A DNA stretch of 64,000 nucleotides from assembly GCA_041664165.1 (NCBI GenBank), contig JBAYLH010000002.1:9665-73664 (forward strand), in the 5' to 3' direction. This document shows positions 18,191-45,098 of the stretch, piece by piece. Every line of letters begins with the position of its first letter. Positions within the stretch are counted from its first letter, which is position 1. Under the pieces are notes generated by a model. The model was not told where the DNA came from. It saw only the letters and a program-made list of their open reading frames with translations, and did not search any database. Origin of the DNA: Candidatus Buchananbacteria bacterium (lineage in GTDB: Bacteria; Patescibacteriota; Patescibacteriia; Buchananbacterales; UBA6539). The position numbers were made by a program, and so were the translations under genes.

Positions 18191-19054
18191 ATGCGTCATA
18201 AAAGAGATTATCAAAGGAACAATTTTAAAAACCCTTTTTTCCCAAAAAATAAAAATCAGAAAAAAAAATTTGGTTTTAAATCCGTTTTTTTTCTTATTTT
18301 TATTGTCGTAATCCTGTTTGCGATTGCCAGTAATGTCAGCCGGCTGCAGATAAAAGAGATTAAGGTTTTTGGCAATGAATATATCAGTCAAGTCGAAATA
18401 AAAGGAGTCATCGCCACTCAGCTGGCCAAAAAACGCTTTTTCTTTTTCAGCCAAAATAATATTTTGTTTTTCAGCCGGCGCCAGGCCGCCAAAGAGCTTC
18501 AAAAAAAATATCTTTTTGAACAGCTCAAAATTAAAAAACAATATTTTGACACCATTGTCATTACGCTCAAAGAAAAAACTTCCGGCTTGATTTGGTTAAC
18601 CGGTAGCAGCCAGTATTACTTGGATTTAACCGGCAAAGTTATTAGAAAAATTGAAAATGACAATTTAGTCGTTGCCGCCGGCGCCGGGACAACTCAAGTC
18701 ATCCGCCAGCCAGCCAGCATTGGCAATTATCCGTTAGTTGCCGATGAAAGCAACCAGCCGATTGAACCCGGCCAGCAAGTGCTTAATCAGTCATTAGTTG
18801 ATTTCGTTATTAGTTTAAACCAGAAATTAAAAGATAATGCCGGTTTTGAAGTTTTGAGTTATGGCTTAGTCAGCTCAAGTGCCAAAGAGATTAAAATGAT
18901 AACTAGGCAAGGCTGGGAAGTTTATTTCAATACGACTGAAGCCGCCCAAAAACAAGCTGATCGGCTGTCTCTGGTTTTGAATGAAAAAGTTAAAGACCGA
19001 AGCAAACTCAAGTATATTGATTTGAGATACGGCGATAAAGTTTTTTTGAATTAG
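18191..19054 (+). CDS. ftsQ: cell division protein FtsQ/DivIB-like (POTRA)
   Basis: Single TM followed by POTRA-like segment; follows ddl as in dcw clusters. Confidence 0.6.
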   Translation: MRHKRDYQRNNFKNPFFPKNKNQKKKFGFKSVFFLIFIVVILFAIASNVSRLQIKEIKVFGNEYISQVEIKGVIATQLAKKRFFFFSQNNILFFSRRQAAKELQKKYLFEQLKIKKQYFDTIVITLKEKTSGLIWLTGSSQYYLDLTGKVIRKIENDNLVVAAGAGTTQVIRQPASIGNYPLVADESNQPIEPGQQVLNQSLVDFVISLNQKLKDNAGFEVLSYGLVSSSAKEIKMITRQGWEVYFNTTEAAQKQADRLSLVLNEKVKDRSKLKYIDLRYGDKVFLN

Positions 19055-19187
19055 TTTTTTTGTTTTCAGCATCAAAACAAATATGATGCGTCGCAAAATA
19101 TTTAGAGTAGGCGATAGGGGCAGCTTAAAGTAGAGGAGAGCAAAATTTAATCTCAACCAGGGTTTGGTGAGATTAAGAAATAATATC

Positions 19188-19212
19188 AAGTGCCTCAAAA
19201 GGGCACTTTTTG
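19188..19212 (+). terminator. rho-independent terminator candidate
   Basis: GTGCC-tcaaaag-GGCAC hairpin followed by T-run. Confidence 0.5.
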
Positions 19213-19592
19213 CGATATTAGTGCTAGGTTCGGATTCTAATCAATTGGGTAAATTTATTTCAAAATTTGTCTATTTTGGTATGACGATATTCTACGGGAT
19301 AATTATTTGTAAATTTTAGTTTCAGTTAGCTTAATTTTTTTAATCCGCCAAGGTTGCTAAGGTCTAAATTAGGTAGTTTTATCAGCCAGTATGCCAAATT
19401 GGTCAACTTAGAGCTTTACTATAGCTTTAGTTAAATCATGGGTCCTATGTGTCGTTTAAGGTATATTGTGCGACTCTAGATTACTCAGTTTGTTAATACT
19501 ATTGTGCTATCCCCCTTGATTTGGTGAAGTTATGAATCCGGGATTTTTTTAGTGGTTATGTAATATATTTAATCAAAACTCGTCTTAATTAT

Positions 19593-19620
19593 TGACAGAA
19601 TTATTTTTAAATTATAAAAT
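19593..19620 (+). promoter_or_regulatory. sigma70-type promoter
   Basis: TTGACA-16 nt-TAAAAT. Confidence 0.45.
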
Positions 19621-19654
19621 ATTAAGCCGTCCTTTGAAATCGTTGTTAATTGCC

Positions 19655-19695
19655 CTTCCCTACCTGCCGGTATAACCTGTTTTACCTGCAGCTAA
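19655..19695 (+). promoter_or_regulatory. 5' UTR hairpin sequestering the Shine-Dalgarno
   Basis: AATTGCCCTTCC pairs with GGAGGGCAATT, which contains the AGGAGG SD. Confidence 0.35.
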
Positions 19696-19783
19696 AGGAG
19701 GGCAATTTGCGAGAAATAACTTGCATGAGCCAGAATCGTCACCTGGTTTGTTAGCCTCTCCGCTAATTATTAAGCTCAAACGT

Positions 19784-19945
19784 ATGTTGAAGGCTTTGTC
19801 GGGAGCGCTAACTCTGGCGCTGACTCTAATTGTGCTTAAGTTATTTCTCCCCGAGGTTGCCGCCGGACTGATTGAATTGACTGTAAAAGTCATTCACGTG
19901 CTGAATGTTTCAGTCGATCAGGCTTCGGCCAACCTTCCCCAATAG
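19784..19945 (+). CDS. small helical/hydrophobic peptide (53 aa)
   Basis: ATG after SD region; strong terminator directly downstream; alternative TTG start at 19721. Confidence 0.35.
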   Translation: MLKALSGALTLALTLIVLKLFLPEVAAGLIELTVKVIHVLNVSVDQASANLPQ

Positions 19946-19950
19946 CAATA

Positions 19951-19988
19951 AAGGCTCGGCGGTTTTTTCCTCCGAGCCTTTTCTTTTT
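19951..19988 (+). terminator. rho-independent terminator
   Basis: AAGGCTCGG...CCGAGCCTT 9-bp stem followed by TTCTTTTT. Confidence 0.6.
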
Positions 19989-20008
19989 ATCTATAGTTAT
20001 GAAGAATT

Positions 20009-20668
20009 TTATTTATTGATTTTTTTGTATAAAAGGTATGAGTAAATCATTGGGAATAACGAGACAATGGTAATTCCAGCAATGAAAGAATACCAAAATA
20101 ATTCAGCGGGCAGAAATGAGCCGAAAATCATAAATAAACCCATCAGCATGAATAATTTTCCGCCCAAGCGGTGGGTTTTATTCCAGACTTGTTCATTAGA
20201 CAAAGTCCAGGGGGTCCGAATGCCCATAAACCAATTAGACTTAATCTTACCCATGTAGTTGCCCAGAATTAAAAATAACAGGCCAACAATTGTCGGGACA
20301 ACAACGTTAACTGGCAGCTCGTAGCCCAACCCGGCTAAACCGGTATAAAAATAAATTGCGACCATAAAACCAATAAAAAAGTTTTTAAAAATATGGTAGA
20401 CTTTGGCAAATTCAAGATAATGCTCTTTTTTAGGATCAAGATAAGGTAAACCTAAAAATAAGAGATAAAGGCCGAAAATTAAGCCGGGGAAAAAGAAAGC
20501 GGCAAATCCCTTGCCTGACCAGCCATCGATTTGACCCCGGTAATTCCAGTGAGTCGGAACTTTTTCGGGAAAATTAGCATAAAAATAAAAGCTGGCAAAC
20601 ACACTTAGAATAATTAAAATCACTGGGATAAATTCGGTTTTTAAAGTTGGTTTTATCGGACTGCTCAT
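20009..20668 (-). CDS. sdpI: SdpI/YhfL-family membrane immunity/signalling protein
   Basis: Polytopic 219 aa with family-typical N-terminal HWN..G..DGW motif; cotranscribed with ArsR regulator. Confidence 0.7.
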   Translation of the reverse strand: MSSPIKPTLKTEFIPVILIILSVFASFYFYANFPEKVPTHWNYRGQIDGWSGKGFAAFFFPGLIFGLYLLFLGLPYLDPKKEHYLEFAKVYHIFKNFFIGFMVAIYFYTGLAGLGYELPVNVVVPTIVGLLFLILGNYMGKIKSNWFMGIRTPWTLSNEQVWNKTHRLGGKLFMLMGLFMIFGSFLPAELFWYSFIAGITIVSLFPMIYSYLLYKKINK

Positions 20669-20946
20669 AATTTTTTAGCTTTATTTTTATTAAAAAAATT
20701 ATATAATTCTTCGGCGATTTCTTCAAAAACGCTCAAATTCAGCGAATAAATTATCTGCTGCCCCATCCTCTGAGTTGAGACTAAATTGGCATTTTTTAAC
20801 GTGGTTAAATGATGTGAGAGTGAGGGCAAAGTAATCTCAAAATTAACGGCGATTTCATTGACTGGCAAATCCTTTTTTTTAAGCAATTGCAGGATTTTTC
20901 TCCGGGTCGGATCAGATAAGGCGGTAAAAGTGTTATTAAGAGTCAT
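20665..20946 (-). CDS. sdpR: ArsR-family HTH transcriptional regulator (SdpR-like)
   Basis: LSDPTRRKIL...HLTTL ArsR signature; overlaps sdpI start by 4 nt. Confidence 0.75.
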   Translation of the reverse strand: MTLNNTFTALSDPTRRKILQLLKKKDLPVNEIAVNFEITLPSLSHHLTTLKNANLVSTQRMGQQIIYSLNLSVFEEIAEELYNFFNKNKAKKL

Positions 20947-21056
20947 AGCTTCCCTTTCTTGGATAAATTAGGCGATTTTTATTTAGATATTTAGACAAGT
21001 ATCTAAATAGTATAACAAAAAAATAAGGCCGTCAAATTAATTTATCCACAATCGGT

Positions 21057-21356
21057 TTATTTCCAATAAATCATTTTTAAATAATTGATGGCCAAATAAA
21101 TCGTGGCAGCTTGAAAAAAGTCATTAATCGTCGGTTTATGGCCGGAAACAAAAGGCAAGGCCAAAATTATTACCGGCGCTAAATACATCGTAATCGTATG
21201 CCTTAAACCTTTGGTCCAATTTAATTCAATCGGTAAAGCGCTGTTTCCCCCGGCGGCTAGAGCGCGTCTAATTCTGATTTTATTTTTGACAAAAATTATC
21301 GTTCCGGCGGCAATTAGGATAATGGTGGTAGCGGTTGTCAGGATTACGATCCACAT
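21057..21356 (-). CDS. small membrane protein (paralog A)
   Basis: 99 aa, 2 TM; C-terminal 50 aa similar to neighbour (…NDFF..A..YLAINYLKMIYW). Confidence 0.5.
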   Translation of the reverse strand: MWIVILTTATTIILIAAGTIIFVKNKIRIRRALAAGGNSALPIELNWTKGLRHTITMYLAPVIILALPFVSGHKPTINDFFQAATIYLAINYLKMIYWK

Positions 21357-21360
21357 AAAA

Positions 21361-21786
21361 TTAAAATATTTTTCCCCAGTAAATAATCTTTAGGTAAGCT
21401 AAGGCGAGAAAAGCGACAATGACCTGCAAAATGTCATTAAAAACTATTTTTTCACCGCCGGCTAGCGGAATAAACAAAACGATAATCGGCATTGAATATA
21501 ACAATAAGTCATGTTTCAAGGCTTGGTTTTGGGAAAGATTAACCATTTGAATACCGCCAAGGCGCAACGATTCTTTGCTGTCAGTTTCCGATTTTCTTGA
21601 ATTTAAAAATAGAATCAAAGCAAAGATTAAAAGAACCATCAGCATGAACATAAAAAAGATGAAACTGACGGCGCTTTTGGTCTGGCTTATCGCTTTTTGA
21701 TCGTTGTAGGCTAAAAGCGAAACTACGGCAATTAGCGAAACTGCCATTAAATCACTAAAATCGTCTGATTTGTATTTTTTTGCCAT
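21361..21786 (-). CDS. small membrane protein (paralog B)
   Basis: 141 aa; shares C-terminal …NDIL..I.AFLALAYLKIIYW module with 21057-21356. Confidence 0.5.
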   Translation of the reverse strand: MAKKYKSDDFSDLMAVSLIAVVSLLAYNDQKAISQTKSAVSFIFFMFMLMVLLIFALILFLNSRKSETDSKESLRLGGIQMVNLSQNQALKHDLLLYSMPIIVLFIPLAGGEKIVFNDILQVIVAFLALAYLKIIYWGKIF

Positions 21787-21799
21787 TTTAGTTGGTTAG

Positions 21800-23092
21800 T
21801 TACAAGGCCGGCAAATATTCCAAGGGATTAACCGGAATGCCGTTTAATCGGACTTCAAAATGAAGATGAGGCCCGGTTGTTAACGGTCCGGCGCCCGGAC
21901 TGCCGGGTAAACCGCCTGATAAGCCGATTACCTGGCCTTTGGTTACGTAAGCATCTCCTTTAACGTAAACTGCCGAGACATGGCCAAAAACAGTGGAAAG
22001 GCCGTCGTTATGGATTAACATAATATAAGCATAGCTTTTGTCGCCTTTAAATTGAATTCGCGCGACGTAGCCGTTTTCCGGGGCTTTAATCGGCGTGCCT
22101 TGGCCGGCCCGGATGTCAATGGCCGGATGTTCAAAAATATAGCGAAAGGGGTAATCGGGGTCATGGAAATAAGCGGAAATTCCCCGGCCTGGTGAAACCG
22201 GCCAGCCTAGCCGGGCCGGACCGAAATCCTGGAATCTTTGGTTTTGTTCCTGTTCTTCCAATTTTTTCCGAACGGTTTTTTCGAGCGTGGCAATATCAGC
22301 ATTGATTTGCTGCTGTTCTAGCTGTAATTGGTAGGTATATTTTTGGTATTGTCTTTCAGTCAGTTTAGCTTGGGAAAAAAGGATTTGTTTGGCATTATTT
22401 TTTTCGGTTAATTCTGATTTTTGTTCCTGGAGCTGGGTTTTTAAATCTTCTTCAAGTTTTGCTTTGATTTCCCAGCTGGCTTTTTCGGTTTGTAAATCTT
22501 TTTGGTTGCCTTTCAATTTATCAACGGTATTTTTCAAGTTGGTATGAATTTCTTGGGTGTATTTTATTTGGTCAAAAAAATCAGAGAAAGAGTCGTTGAC
22601 CAAAAGTATTTTTAAATAGCCGACTTGGTCGTTACGGTTGATTAAGCGGATATAGCCGGCGATTTTTTGCTTGTTGTCGGCAATTTTATCTTCAATCTCT
22701 TTAATCTGCAAATTCAATTTTTGGATTTCTAAATTAGTTTGTTCGATTTTCATCTCGGTTGTCTCAATATCCAAATTAACTTTAGCCACTTCATTTTCTA
22801 AAATCGCAATTTGATTTTGCAGGCCTTTGGCTTCCTGCTGTTTGCTTTTAATCTGGTCGGCGTAAGCGTCAACTTCTTTTTGTAAAATATCAATTTGTTT
22901 GCGCCGGTCTTCGATTTTGTTGTTTAGTTCGGCGATGTCATCAGGTTTATTTTCTACCGTAGCCGAACCATCAATTGCCGCGGCGGAAATAATTTTTGGC
23001 AAAACCGAAAAACCAGCGATTATAAAGCTGAGGATTAGGCTGGTTACTAATATTTTCGCCCGGTTTATTTTTGGTTTTTTATTTTGGGTCAT
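21800..23092 (-). CDS. M23/LytM-family peptidase with N-terminal coiled coil (EnvC-like)
   Basis: Signal/TM, long coiled coil, C-terminal M23 motifs (HxxxD ... HLHFEV). Confidence 0.8.
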   Translation of the reverse strand: MTQNKKPKINRAKILVTSLILSFIIAGFSVLPKIISAAAIDGSATVENKPDDIAELNNKIEDRRKQIDILQKEVDAYADQIKSKQQEAKGLQNQIAILENEVAKVNLDIETTEMKIEQTNLEIQKLNLQIKEIEDKIADNKQKIAGYIRLINRNDQVGYLKILLVNDSFSDFFDQIKYTQEIHTNLKNTVDKLKGNQKDLQTEKASWEIKAKLEEDLKTQLQEQKSELTEKNNAKQILFSQAKLTERQYQKYTYQLQLEQQQINADIATLEKTVRKKLEEQEQNQRFQDFGPARLGWPVSPGRGISAYFHDPDYPFRYIFEHPAIDIRAGQGTPIKAPENGYVARIQFKGDKSYAYIMLIHNDGLSTVFGHVSAVYVKGDAYVTKGQVIGLSGGLPGSPGAGPLTTGPHLHFEVRLNGIPVNPLEYLPAL

Positions 23093-23117: not shown

Positions 23118-24551
23118 TTAATTTTGTAAGAGGTTAATCGCCTTTTTAAGCCGGGCAATGGATTTTTCCCGGCCTAAAATGGCGGCAATCGCAAACGGTC
23201 CCGGGGAAGCTTTCCGGCCGGATAAAGCGACCCGCATTGGCCAAAGTAAATCCCCTACTCCCAGATTTTTTTCCTTGATAAAATCAGTTACGCTTTTTTC
23301 CAAGTCAGCTTCGGTCCATTTTCCCGTTTTTATTTTTTCCAGTTCATCGATTAAAGTTTGAAGGTTTTCGGCAGTTTTTTCTTTAGTCAGTTTTTTCCAG
23401 AGTAAAAGCCCGTTGTCATAAGTCGGCTCCTTAAAGAAAAATTCAGTCGCCGCGACAATTTCGCTTAACTTTTTAATCCTTTCCTGCTCGGTTGAAATGA
23501 CTTTTTCTAAATATTTTTGGTCAGGCTTAATTCCGGCTGCCTCAAAAAATGGTTGACAAAGCTTAGCTAATTCGGCTGTATTTTTTTGCCGGATATACTG
23601 GCCGTTAAGCCAATCCAGTTTTTGGGTGTCAAAAATTGCGCCGGCTTTATTGACTTTAGCCAAATCAAAAATTTTGATCATTGCCTTCAGATCAAAAATT
23701 TCTTCAGCCGTTCCCGGGTTCCAGCCCAAAAGTAAAACAAAATTTAACAAGGCTTCCGGTAAGTAGCCGTTTTTTAGATAATCTTCAACGGCGACATCGC
23801 CTTGCCGTTTGGAAAGTTTTGAGCGGTCGGGATTCAGCAAAAGCGGCAGATGGGCAAATTCCGGCGCTTGCCAGCCGAAAGCCTGGTAAAGCAAAACGTG
23901 TTTTGGCGTTGAGGAAAGCCACTCTTCGCCTCTAATGACGTGAGTTATTTCCATTTCACGGTCATCAACGACGGAAGCTAAATGGTAAGTGGGAAAACCG
24001 TCGGATTTTAAAATTATTTGGTCATCAAGAGTTTGGTTGCTGAAACTGACTTTGCCTCGGATTAAATCGTTAAATTCAGTAACGCCGGTTTTAGGCATTT
24101 TAAAGCGGATGACGCGAGATTTTCCGGCCTTAAGCGAGTCATCAATTTCCGTTTGGCTTAAGCGGCAGCAGCAGCCGTCATACATCGGCGGCAGTTTTTT
24201 TTGCTGCTGGGTTTGCCTGACTTGCTCCAGTCTTTCCGGGGTGCAAAAGCAGTAGTAAGCTTTGTCATTTTTGACTAAATCTTGGGCAAATTTTTGATAA
24301 ATTGCCAGCCGCTCCGACTGGACCATCACCTTTTTATTATCCCAATTTAAGCCGAAAAATTTTAGCATTTTTTTGAGATTTTCGACCGCTCCCTCGACTT
24401 TTCTGGTCTGATCGGTATCTTCAATTCTTAATAAAAAATCACCACCAAAGTGTTTGGCAAAAAGATAAACGTATAAAGACGTCCGCAAACTGCCGACGTG
24501 AAAAAAGCCAGTCGGGCTGGGAGCAAAACGGGTTTTGACGGTTTTTGGCAT
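23118..24551 (-). CDS. gltX: glutamyl-tRNA synthetase
   Basis: HVGSLRT (HIGH) and KLSKR (KMSKS) class I motifs. Confidence 0.9.
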   Translation of the reverse strand: MPKTVKTRFAPSPTGFFHVGSLRTSLYVYLFAKHFGGDFLLRIEDTDQTRKVEGAVENLKKMLKFFGLNWDNKKVMVQSERLAIYQKFAQDLVKNDKAYYCFCTPERLEQVRQTQQQKKLPPMYDGCCCRLSQTEIDDSLKAGKSRVIRFKMPKTGVTEFNDLIRGKVSFSNQTLDDQIILKSDGFPTYHLASVVDDREMEITHVIRGEEWLSSTPKHVLLYQAFGWQAPEFAHLPLLLNPDRSKLSKRQGDVAVEDYLKNGYLPEALLNFVLLLGWNPGTAEEIFDLKAMIKIFDLAKVNKAGAIFDTQKLDWLNGQYIRQKNTAELAKLCQPFFEAAGIKPDQKYLEKVISTEQERIKKLSEIVAATEFFFKEPTYDNGLLLWKKLTKEKTAENLQTLIDELEKIKTGKWTEADLEKSVTDFIKEKNLGVGDLLWPMRVALSGRKASPGPFAIAAILGREKSIARLKKAINLLQN

Positions 24552-44467: not shown

Positions 44468-44698
44468 TTAAAAATAAAGCGAGAGGCCTAAAATCGCGTG
44501 AGCCAACCCGACGATAATGGAAATCCGCGCCAGCCAAATATGAGCTTTAAGCGGAATTTTTTTGCCTTTTAAAATCAGCATTCCCAGTATCGCCACGGTG
44601 ATAAAAAGTAAAAGAGTAACGAAACCGCCATACATAATCAGCGGTTTGCCTAAAATCGGATAGAAAGCGATTTGTCTGAGCATAGGGTTATTTGACAA
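44468..44698 (-). CDS. small membrane protein
   Basis: 76 aa, 2 TM. Confidence 0.4.
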   Translation of the reverse strand: MSNNPMLRQIAFYPILGKPLIMYGGFVTLLLFITVAILGMLILKGKKIPLKAHIWLARISIIVGLAHAILGLSLYF

Positions 44699-45098
44699 TT
44701 ACGGTGCCAGTCATTGAAGGATGAAGTCGGCAGTGATAGTTAATCGTTTCTTTGTCGTTGAATTTAATCTTGGCGGTTTTGCCGGGATCAATATCGCCGG
44801 TATCAATCCGGTTATCAATCGTAACCGCATGGGCAGTCTGGTCGGAATTAGTCCATTGAACCGTATCGCCGGCGTTGATTTCAATTGTTTGCGGCTGAAA
44901 GGAAAAATTAGTGATATTAACTTCAACTTGCTTCGGCGCGATATTGGTATTGGCGTTTGCATTTCCTGCCGGCGTATTGGTATTGGCTGCGGGCGGCGTT
45001 GCGACTGAGCCGCAGCCGGCCAGCAGCAATGGGATAGACGCGACGGTGAGCAAGATTTTGATTTTTTTCATAAGTTTATAATTGTTATTTACAGACAT
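44688..45098 (-). CDS. cupredoxin (plastocyanin/amicyanin-like blue copper) lipoprotein
   Basis: Lipobox LLAGC; type-1 Cu ligands H...C-x2-H-x4-M (HAV...HCRLHPSM). Confidence 0.75.
   Translation of the reverse strand: MSVNNNYKLMKKIKILLTVASIPLLLAGCGSVATPPAANTNTPAGNANANTNIAPKQVEVNITNFSFQPQTIEINAGDTVQWTNSDQTAHAVTIDNRIDTGDIDPGKTAKIKFNDKETINYHCRLHPSMTGTVIVK

Follow-up and report, generated by a model that had tools for sequence, protein, structure and literature searches.

The sdpRI operon of Bacillus subtilis is an immunity and signalling operon (Ellermeier et al., 2006, cited after PMC2910880), and SdpI homologues located downstream of ArsR/SdpR-type regulators have been described in other Firmicutes, for example Bce2 of B. 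cereus (Povolotsky et al., 2010; PMC2910880). For the SdpI/YhfL family (TC 9.A.32), the available text of the same source gives two sequence motifs: motif 1, in the external loop between transmembrane segments (TMSs) 1 and 2, was proposed to bind the toxin, while motif 2, in the cytoplasmic loop between TMSs 4 and 5, was proposed to bind SdpR. Here, we describe an sdpR-sdpI gene pair on a 64-kb stretch of DNA (hereafter the window) from the metagenome-assembled genome of a Candidatus Buchananbacteria bacterium, a member of the Patescibacteria or candidate phyla radiation (CPR), and compare it with related loci labelled L001-L018. Patescibacteria have very small genomes and few regulators, and they are mostly uncultured episymbionts. 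No paper naming SdpI together with Patescibacteria or CPR was found in the literature. The sdpR-sdpI pair without a toxin gene in cis proves to be the conserved norm in Patescibacteria and not an oddity of this genome. The locus as a whole is probably best explained by two units, namely an autoregulated sdpRI cassette and a separate cell-wall unit composed of gltX, the gene of a coiled-coil M23 peptidase and the genes of two small membrane proteins, A and B.

The cassette resembles SdpR-SdpI of B. subtilis in that the autorepressor gene comes first, sdpI is tightly coupled to it, SdpI has six helices and carries motif 2, a palindrome lies at the promoter, and the SdpR family model is passed. 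It differs in four respects: no sdpABC toxin operon is present near the cassette in the window, the external motif 1 fits the published consensus poorly, conservation of the cassette is housekeeping-like across a phylum-level radiation with reduced genomes, and the Spo0A/AbrB control of B. subtilis is inapplicable to it. Patescibacteria are not known to sporulate. With the SdpI homologues of other Firmicutes the cassette shares an ArsR/SdpR-type regulator immediately upstream, whereas the lineage is different; the toxin status of those homologues is left unstated in the available text of PMC2910880.

The sdpR-sdpI cassette and its putative operator

The elements of the cassette are as follows.

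20665-20946, minus strand: sdpR, 93 aa, an ArsR/SmtB-type winged-helix repressor of the SdpR subfamily
20009-20668, minus strand: sdpI, 219 aa, a six-helix DUF1648+SdpI membrane protein
21007..21035, minus strand: the sdpRI promoter TTGACG-17-TACTAT, from a consensus scan
20980..21009, strandless: a putative SdpR operator, a 13-4-13 inverted repeat, from an inverted-repeat search

All five open reading frames (ORFs) of the segment 20009-23092 were verified on the minus strand at the coordinates given here and below. The initial annotation had described an ArsR-family repressor overlapping an SdpI-family membrane protein in the layout of B. subtilis sdpRI, and this description is borne out: the repressor gene comes first, and the two genes overlap by 4 nt (ATGA), as seen directly in the sequence, an arrangement of translational coupling. 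Family identity was judged by curated profiles and the published motifs. The 93-aa protein matches the NCBIfam model NF033789, the ‘autorepressor SdpR family’, with 107.7 bits (cut-off 100), and HTH_5 with 48.7 bits. The membrane protein matches PF13630 over all of the profile (positions 1-71 of 71) with 79.4 bits (gathering cut-off 28.2), and its N-terminal half matches DUF1648 (PF07853) with 58.6 bits. Six hydrophobic segments can be read from the sequence, which is the six-TMS topology of the family, and the AlphaFold model (predicted local distance difference test, pLDDT, 90.2; predicted template modelling score, pTM, 0.81) consists of six long helices; its external loop 1 folds as a beta-hairpin, and helices 4 and 5 are joined on the cytoplasmic side by a short helical loop. 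Motif 2, as given in the available text of PMC2910880, is matched at 41 of 49 specified positions (residues 128-177), while the best of 1000 shuffles reached 16. Both genes already carry the NCBI SdpI/SdpR family annotation.

A metal-sensing repressor of the ArsR/SmtB type was considered for SdpR and rejected, since no recognisable Cys/His metal site of the alpha3N/alpha5 type is present: the protein has no Cys, its only His residues are at 45-46 in the recognition helix, and the C-terminal helix has none. The metal-sensor equivalog models of NCBIfam likewise give scores far under every cut-off. A defence-system reading was also rejected, as PADLOC returned only generic winged helix-turn-helix (Csa3-like) and coiled-coil matches. 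As a separate observation, SdpI has a full-length match of 170.8 bits to the phage protein family phrog_33065, which has no assigned function; some phages or prophages thus encode SdpI-like proteins as well. No match in PHROGs was obtained for SdpR, A, B or a 53-aa ORF convergent with sdpI.

Eight independent contexts of the cassette were compared, namely the window, L004, L006, L008, L009, L011, L012 and L013. In all of them a TTGAC -35 box, with a -10 box about 17 nt downstream, precedes sdpR, and the sequence TTTAGA(T/C)A-N-TTGTCTAAATATCTAA, which starts at or just past the -10 box, is conserved (8/8 for both). In the window, the putative operator is formed by the arms TATTTAGATACTT and AAATATCTAAATA around the spacer GTCT, the arms being 92% complementary (inverted repeat I3); the repeat overlaps the TACTAT -10 box and extends past it. 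The operator 25-mer, TTTAGATANTTGTCTAAATATCTAA, is nearly invariant upstream of sdpR in the seven other contexts. A search of the 64 kb that tolerated three mismatches found this 25-mer a single time, against 0 copies expected by chance. With no second copy there, the window gives no sign of a wider regulon. A conserved palindrome lying over the -10 box constitutes strong circumstantial evidence, drawn from sequence, that SdpR would repress its own promoter. Neither this operator conservation nor the phylum-wide retention of sdpRI figures in the account of Povolotsky et al. (2010), as far as the available text of PMC2910880 goes.

Conservation of the cassette, its likely working and the toxin question

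A protein search with SdpI returned 3927 homologues at E<=1e-5, and the best 120 of the 3927 all have the DUF1648+SdpI architecture with 53-76% identity. The named matches are nearly all from Patescibacteria (Buchananbacteria, Falkowbacteria, Parcubacteria), and one is labelled just ‘bacterium’. An ArsR gene is located directly upstream of sdpI in each of the eight contexts. Apart from this pair, the gene neighbourhoods have nothing in common, and a recurrent third gene is absent. Consequently, the term ‘orphan’, which the initial annotation had applied to the pair, is apt insofar as the cassette is toxin-less, and misleading insofar as such cassettes are widespread in Patescibacteria and share an invariant operator. 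The same annotation had held that a failed SdpI profile match, together with ubiquity and a housekeeping character in relatives, would speak against its reading; the protein does match PF13630, and the second part largely describes what is seen.

The rate of evolution is informative in this respect. In comparison with the Buchananbacteria-type loci L004, L008 and L009, SdpR is 75-89% and SdpI 57-76% identical, values that can be set beside those of GltX (64-71%), Ddl (70-74%), LigT (40-62%) and FtsQ (38-44%); in comparison with the more distant L006, SdpR is 50% and SdpI 61% identical. SdpR and SdpI are thus as conserved as GltX and Ddl, so that the cassette evolves in a housekeeping-like manner, unlike a fast-evolving immunity locus. 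Among 33 CPR homologues of SdpI, the loop of motif 2 is almost invariant, and the residues P34, H40, W41, N42, G45 and D48 of the external loop are invariant or nearly so.

Based on these features, sdpR and sdpI probably form an autonomous two-gene cassette, and its mode of action is most likely that of the B. subtilis system, by analogy with which a signal would lead to capture of the autorepressor at the membrane and so to higher levels of SdpI. SdpR, which has no metal site, would bind the 13-4-13 palindrome over the -10 box and repress its own promoter, and sdpI would be translated in coupling with sdpR through the 4-nt overlap. The cytoplasmic loop between TMSs 4 and 5 of SdpI, with its near-canonical motif 2, is the putative site of contact with SdpR. 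In response to a cue from outside or from the membrane, SdpI could then sequester SdpR at the membrane, as in the B. subtilis system, and the resulting derepression of the operon would supply more of a protective SdpI. Because none of the eight contexts has a toxin gene beside the cassette, the cue would most likely be an exogenous membrane-active peptide, from a host or a competitor, or a general membrane perturbation, and not a self-made cannibalism toxin.

Several points weigh against this picture. Motif 1 as published (PMC2910880, available text) is found at the expected place (residues 28-56), but with only 12 of 28 positions matched, which equals the best of 1000 shuffles, so that the ligand of SdpI may differ completely from SdpC. 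Housekeeping-like conservation is odd for an immunity protein and would suit an endogenous cue equally well. The toxin negatives cover 64 kb of a contig that is at least 178 kb long. The binding of SdpR to DNA, the SdpI-SdpR contact and the protective role are all extrapolated from one characterised homologue, that of B. subtilis.

Could the cassette instead be a housekeeping sensor of envelope homeostasis, which responds to an endogenous, conserved membrane or cell-wall cue and is independent of any toxin? Its position among M23, ftsQ, ddl and alr would then mirror its function. In view of the conservation, this alternative is a serious rival, although we consider it rather unlikely. It agrees with a conservation equal to that of an aminoacyl-tRNA synthetase and Ddl, with the invariance or near invariance of P34, H40, W41, G45 and D48 in the external loop, with the invariant operator and with the retention of the cassette in very small genomes; moreover, TrpP of Corynebacterium glutamicum, a member of the SdpI family, has a non-immunity phenotype (PMC11995493). 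However, beyond the Buchananbacteria-like clade the cassette has unrelated genes as neighbours (an ABC transporter and a SpoU methylase; a hydrolase and HicB; BipA; IMPDH), and the sole copy of the operator in 64 kb is the cassette's own.

The toxin question itself involves the DNA on the other flank of sdpI, where a small convergent ORF is followed by ftsQ-ddl-alr.

19784..19945, plus strand: a 53-aa single-helix ORF, convergent with sdpI, present in the source annotation and treated as a neighbour only
19951..19980, strandless: the hairpin AAGGCTCGG...CCGAGCCTT between the convergent sdpI and 53-aa ORF, read from the sequence

In agreement with the initial annotation, nothing SdpC-like was found in the 64-kb window by simple gene calling, and ten of its encoded proteins, either secreted or of unknown kind, matched no toxin family of NCBIfam, the presence of an SdpC model in the release used being unconfirmed. 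A classical toxin-immunity system, whose toxin would be the 53-aa ORF or an operon beyond the window and for which SdpI would provide dedicated self-immunity, is nevertheless conceivable. According to the available text of PMC2910880, the toxin operon of B. subtilis is adjacent and convergent to sdpRI; here, a conserved single-helix gene with a structured and conserved leader is convergent with sdpI, and the inspected part of the genome amounts to 64 kb. On the other hand, the 53-aa ORF is restricted to the closest clade and is missing where the cassette and the operator persist, it matches no toxin family, no third gene recurs beside sdpRI, and SdpI evolves slowly, unlike typical immunity proteins. 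We therefore regard a classical system as quite unlikely, and the exogenous-cue reading of an autoregulated cassette is preferred.

The 53-aa ORF, the sole toxin candidate in cis, was also considered on its own as the missing toxin, and it was rejected because its distribution is too narrow for a general partner of the cassette. It is 72-79% identical in the closest relatives only, forms 6 clusters in the whole database of 5.8 billion proteins, and is not found beside sdpI in L006, L008, L009, L011, L012 and L013. NCBIfam, PADLOC and PHROGs gave no toxin family for it. The hairpin between it and sdpI is likely a bidirectional terminator; it was not called by a simple terminator scan. A leader of about 190 nt precedes the 53-aa ORF and contains a 60-nt imperfect palindrome at 19648-19707 on the plus strand. 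This leader folds better than all of 200 shuffled sequences (z=-4.05), and L004 and L017 share it with 74-78% identity. The layout of 19600-19945 (plus strand) is loosely like that of a gene for a small hydrophobic peptide whose 5' untranslated region is structured.

These results do not overturn the current understanding, and the finding, although real, is mostly ordinary. What is modestly interesting is a phylum-conserved, precisely defined operator and, as described below, a tiny uncharacterised family of membrane proteins tied to a coiled-coil M23 hydrolase. The cassette with its near-invariant operator offers a handy entry point to environment sensing in Patescibacteria, and the precision with which its operator and promoter are delimited is sufficient for reporter work or electrophoretic mobility shift assays. 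For annotation, the pair also calls for caution, as SdpI and SdpR by themselves need not signal a toxin system.

The probable gltX-M23-A-B unit

Upstream of the cassette on the same strand lie the following genes.

23118-24551, minus strand: gltX (glutamyl-tRNA synthetase), with a tRNA-synt_1c Pfam match on the identical locus L002
21800-23092, minus strand: the coiled-coil M23 (LytM-type) peptidase, a predicted peptidoglycan endopeptidase, secreted or anchored, 430 aa
21361-21786, minus strand: small membrane protein A, 141 aa, four helices, ‘KHD’ subtype
21057-21356, minus strand: small membrane protein B, 99 aa, three hydrophobic helices, ‘KHT’ subtype

The intergenic spacing is 25 nt between gltX and M23, 13 nt between M23 and A and 4 nt between A and B, and the gap of 110 nt between B and sdpR holds the sdpRI promoter. 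The gene order WecG-GltX-M23-A is kept in relatives, and gltX is the probable first gene of a gltX-M23-A-B transcription unit. The narrower alignment A4 was used to search for loci of the A/B family and gave 2 genome loci and 4 metagenome loci, a number that confirms the rarity of the family and limits the synteny statistics. L001 has the M23 C-terminus followed by A-like and B-like genes; L009 (with the near-identical L015 and L016) has M23, A, B and sdpRI in this order; L004, L008 and L017 have M23, a single member of about 133 aa and then sdpRI, an arrangement that L018 resembles in the manner of L004; and L014 has M23 and a single member without sdpRI, followed by integrase and RecT genes. 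Thus, A/B genes stand behind the M23 gene in all six independent contexts (L001, L004, L008, L009, L014 and L017), including one that lacks sdpRI, while sdpRI occurs without A/B in L006, L011, L012 and L013. A and B track M23 and not sdpRI, and are therefore part of the gltX-M23 unit. We favour the view that gltX-M23-A-B is a cell-wall unit distinct from sdpRI, and it is likewise rather probable that the two units are independent and became adjacent by chance in one CPR lineage.

The initial annotation had suggested that A and B may be additional immunity or toxin-like peptides; in that case they would work with or be controlled by SdpR and SdpI. They do adjoin sdpR in the window, L004, L008, L009 and L017, and the proteins are small, hydrophobic and duplicated. 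However, they follow M23 tightly, and the sdpR promoter and operator intervene before the cassette, as does an insert of about 0.4-0.7 kb in L004, L017 and L018. The six contexts behind M23, L014 among them, and the four sdpRI cassettes without A/B disagree with the suggestion, and so does the old duplication, after which an invariant His and Tyr and a nearly invariant Lys and Trp have been retained in A as well as in B. Such a pattern is more suggestive of a site with a structural or functional role than of a lytic peptide. A role for A and B as immunity or toxin peptides is accordingly very improbable, and we return to A and B as members of the M23 unit.

The paralogy of the C-terminal parts of A and B, noted from the outset, is clear: they align in BLASTP with E=1e-15 and 33% identity across 75 residues, and the tail ...ND..Q....L...YLK.IYW is part of this alignment. 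An exhaustive profile search of 1.84 billion representatives yielded 44 members of the family at E<=1e-3, the family being confined to CPR bacteria, and a word-index search with protein A retrieved A itself and one relative. The C-terminal module of the family reads L-x-W-x-Q/K-x-L-K-H-D/T ... P ... P ... Q ... Y-L-K-x-x-Y-W, that is, a cytoplasmic L-x-W-x-Q-A-L-K-H-D segment and then a two-helix hairpin ending in Y-L-K-x-x-Y-W. In the family alignment, His92 and Tyr136 are invariant, and P100, P107, Q121, Y131, K133 and W137 are nearly so. Two classes can be distinguished: a larger one of about 130-150 aa with four helices and ‘KHD’, to which A belongs, and a smaller one of about 95-100 aa with three helices and mostly ‘KHT’, to which B belongs. 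The charge distribution suggests that the two classes do not differ in the orientation of the module and that the segment before the hairpin is cytoplasmic. Within the conserved module, B is 54-64% identical to the B-types of other genomes (95-99 aa) and closer to them than to A (33% in the pairwise BLASTP alignment), which indicates that the duplication is old and that both copies have been kept. Two distant members, P0157 and P0161 (about 190-204 aa), contain the hairpin module twice in tandem in one chain, an arrangement that would fit a module working as a dimer or heteromer.

The model of protein A is a four-helix bundle (pLDDT 77) without an informative structural neighbour. B matches no Pfam or NCBIfam family, and A has a marginal match to RseC_MucC (PF04246), at 25.2 bits (cut-off 24.4) over profile positions 45-107 of 130; 11 of 31 family members match this profile weakly (E<=0.01). 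The name RseC, which NCBI gives to A, was rejected, because the match is partial, at threshold level and confined to the membrane hairpin. RseC has an N-terminal soluble, Cys-containing part. A and B share with RseC/MucC a weak similarity over the two-helix membrane hairpin of A, but they have one or two extra helices in place of this N-terminal part, A is without Cys, and no sigma-E or Rsx/Rnf context is present.

The peptidase has an N-terminal signal or anchor, a coiled coil of about 250 aa and a C-terminal Peptidase_M23 domain (75.7 bits). Its coiled coil scores 26.3 bits with CC_PcsB, just below the threshold, and it aligns over nearly its full length (query residues 72-427) with 8tzk_E, a solved M23 chain of 382 aa. 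Orthologues at the same position in relatives are 56-64% identical. The motifs HPAID (HxxxD) and HLH (HxH) are present and aligned with the catalytic motifs of TagE. Judged from these intact motifs, the peptidase should itself hydrolyse and would not be a degenerate activator of the EnvC type. E. coli EnvC is such a degenerate activator, while PcsB carries a CHAP domain. The label ‘EnvC-like’ of the initial annotation therefore fits the architecture, in which, as in the FtsEX-controlled EnvC and PcsB, an export signal is followed by a long coiled coil and a C-terminal LytM/M23 domain; it does not extend to the catalytic site, which is kept here, or to the EnvC equivalog NF008644, with which the score is 42.5 bits against a cut-off of 270. 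A further difference from EnvC/PcsB is that the conserved neighbour is A/B, and the window lacks a gene for a Walker-A (FtsE-like) protein.

From the conserved tight linkage, A and B may be membrane partners or regulators of the M23 hydrolase, possibly as an A/B heteromer, and the family is a testable candidate for the handling of the coiled-coil M23 hydrolase in this lineage. CidA and LrgA, which are holin- and antiholin-like regulators of murein hydrolases, offer an analogy: they too are small proteins of about four helices with long and short relatives and are concerned with murein hydrolase control. They differ in that neither A nor B has a Pfam LrgA match at E<=0.1 and that the window peptidase has its own export signal. 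The geometry also speaks against a partnership of the FtsX kind. The extracellular domain of FtsX clamps the coiled coil, whereas the extracytoplasmic loops of A and B, of about 8-12 residues, are too short for such a clamp, and the conserved residues of A and B are at the cytoplasmic face or within the membrane. Gene adjacency alone, moreover, is no proof of an interaction between A/B and the peptidase. Any coupling would have to take place at the cytoplasmic face or inside the membrane, where the peptidase could, for example, be contacted through its N-terminal anchor.

A bolder reading joins both units. Here, sdpRI would be a constrained core signalling module, the invariant external beta-hairpin of which senses a conserved cue from the host or environment, and A/B would be undescribed membrane partners of the M23 hydrolase. 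We consider this combination unlikely. If it were true, sdpRI would be not a relic of cannibalism but one of the few dedicated envelope sensors of reduced episymbionts, and A/B, possibly a heteromer arising from the old duplication, would link a catalytically active M23 hydrolase of the coiled-coil type with the cytoplasmic membrane face, in a role like that of FtsEX for EnvC, PcsB and RipC. The two-unit explanation remains the preferred one.

Other features of the window and its relatives

In the closest relatives, L004 (5340-5560), L017 (5205-5895) and L018, a GC-rich, structured-looking insert of about 0.25-0.7 kb separates the small gene from the sdpR promoter and takes the place that B occupies in the window. 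It has no Rfam match at the gathering threshold, and searches of L004 and L009 gave nothing in Rfam. A tyrosine-integrase gene is found just past the M23-A(-B)(-sdpRI) block in L014 (5936-9800) and L009 (7900-10537); in L014 it is followed by RecT and several small uncharacterised ORFs, and L009 has an atypically GC-rich stretch. The site beyond the block may be an integration hotspot.

For the window itself, Rfam gave no match at the gathering threshold over the whole length and two chance-level matches only for 18900-21100 at E<=1, and ARAGORN found neither a tRNA nor a tmRNA. On the minus strand at 19055-19490, downstream of sdpI, four genomes share a promoter-like TTGAAT-N17-TATA(C/T)C that overlaps GTCGCACAATATACCTTAAACGAC (alignment A6). 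It faces about 380 nt of ORF-free DNA with hairpins, for example at 19188-19208, and without an Rfam match; this region may be an unannotated small RNA. In addition, a lipoprotein-like protein of 136 aa is encoded at 44688-45098 on the minus strand and is weakly similar to the amicyanin/plastocyanin blue-copper models, with E of about 1e-9 to 1e-10 and scores well under the cut-offs. A blue-copper-like protein seems unusual for a Patescibacteria genome.

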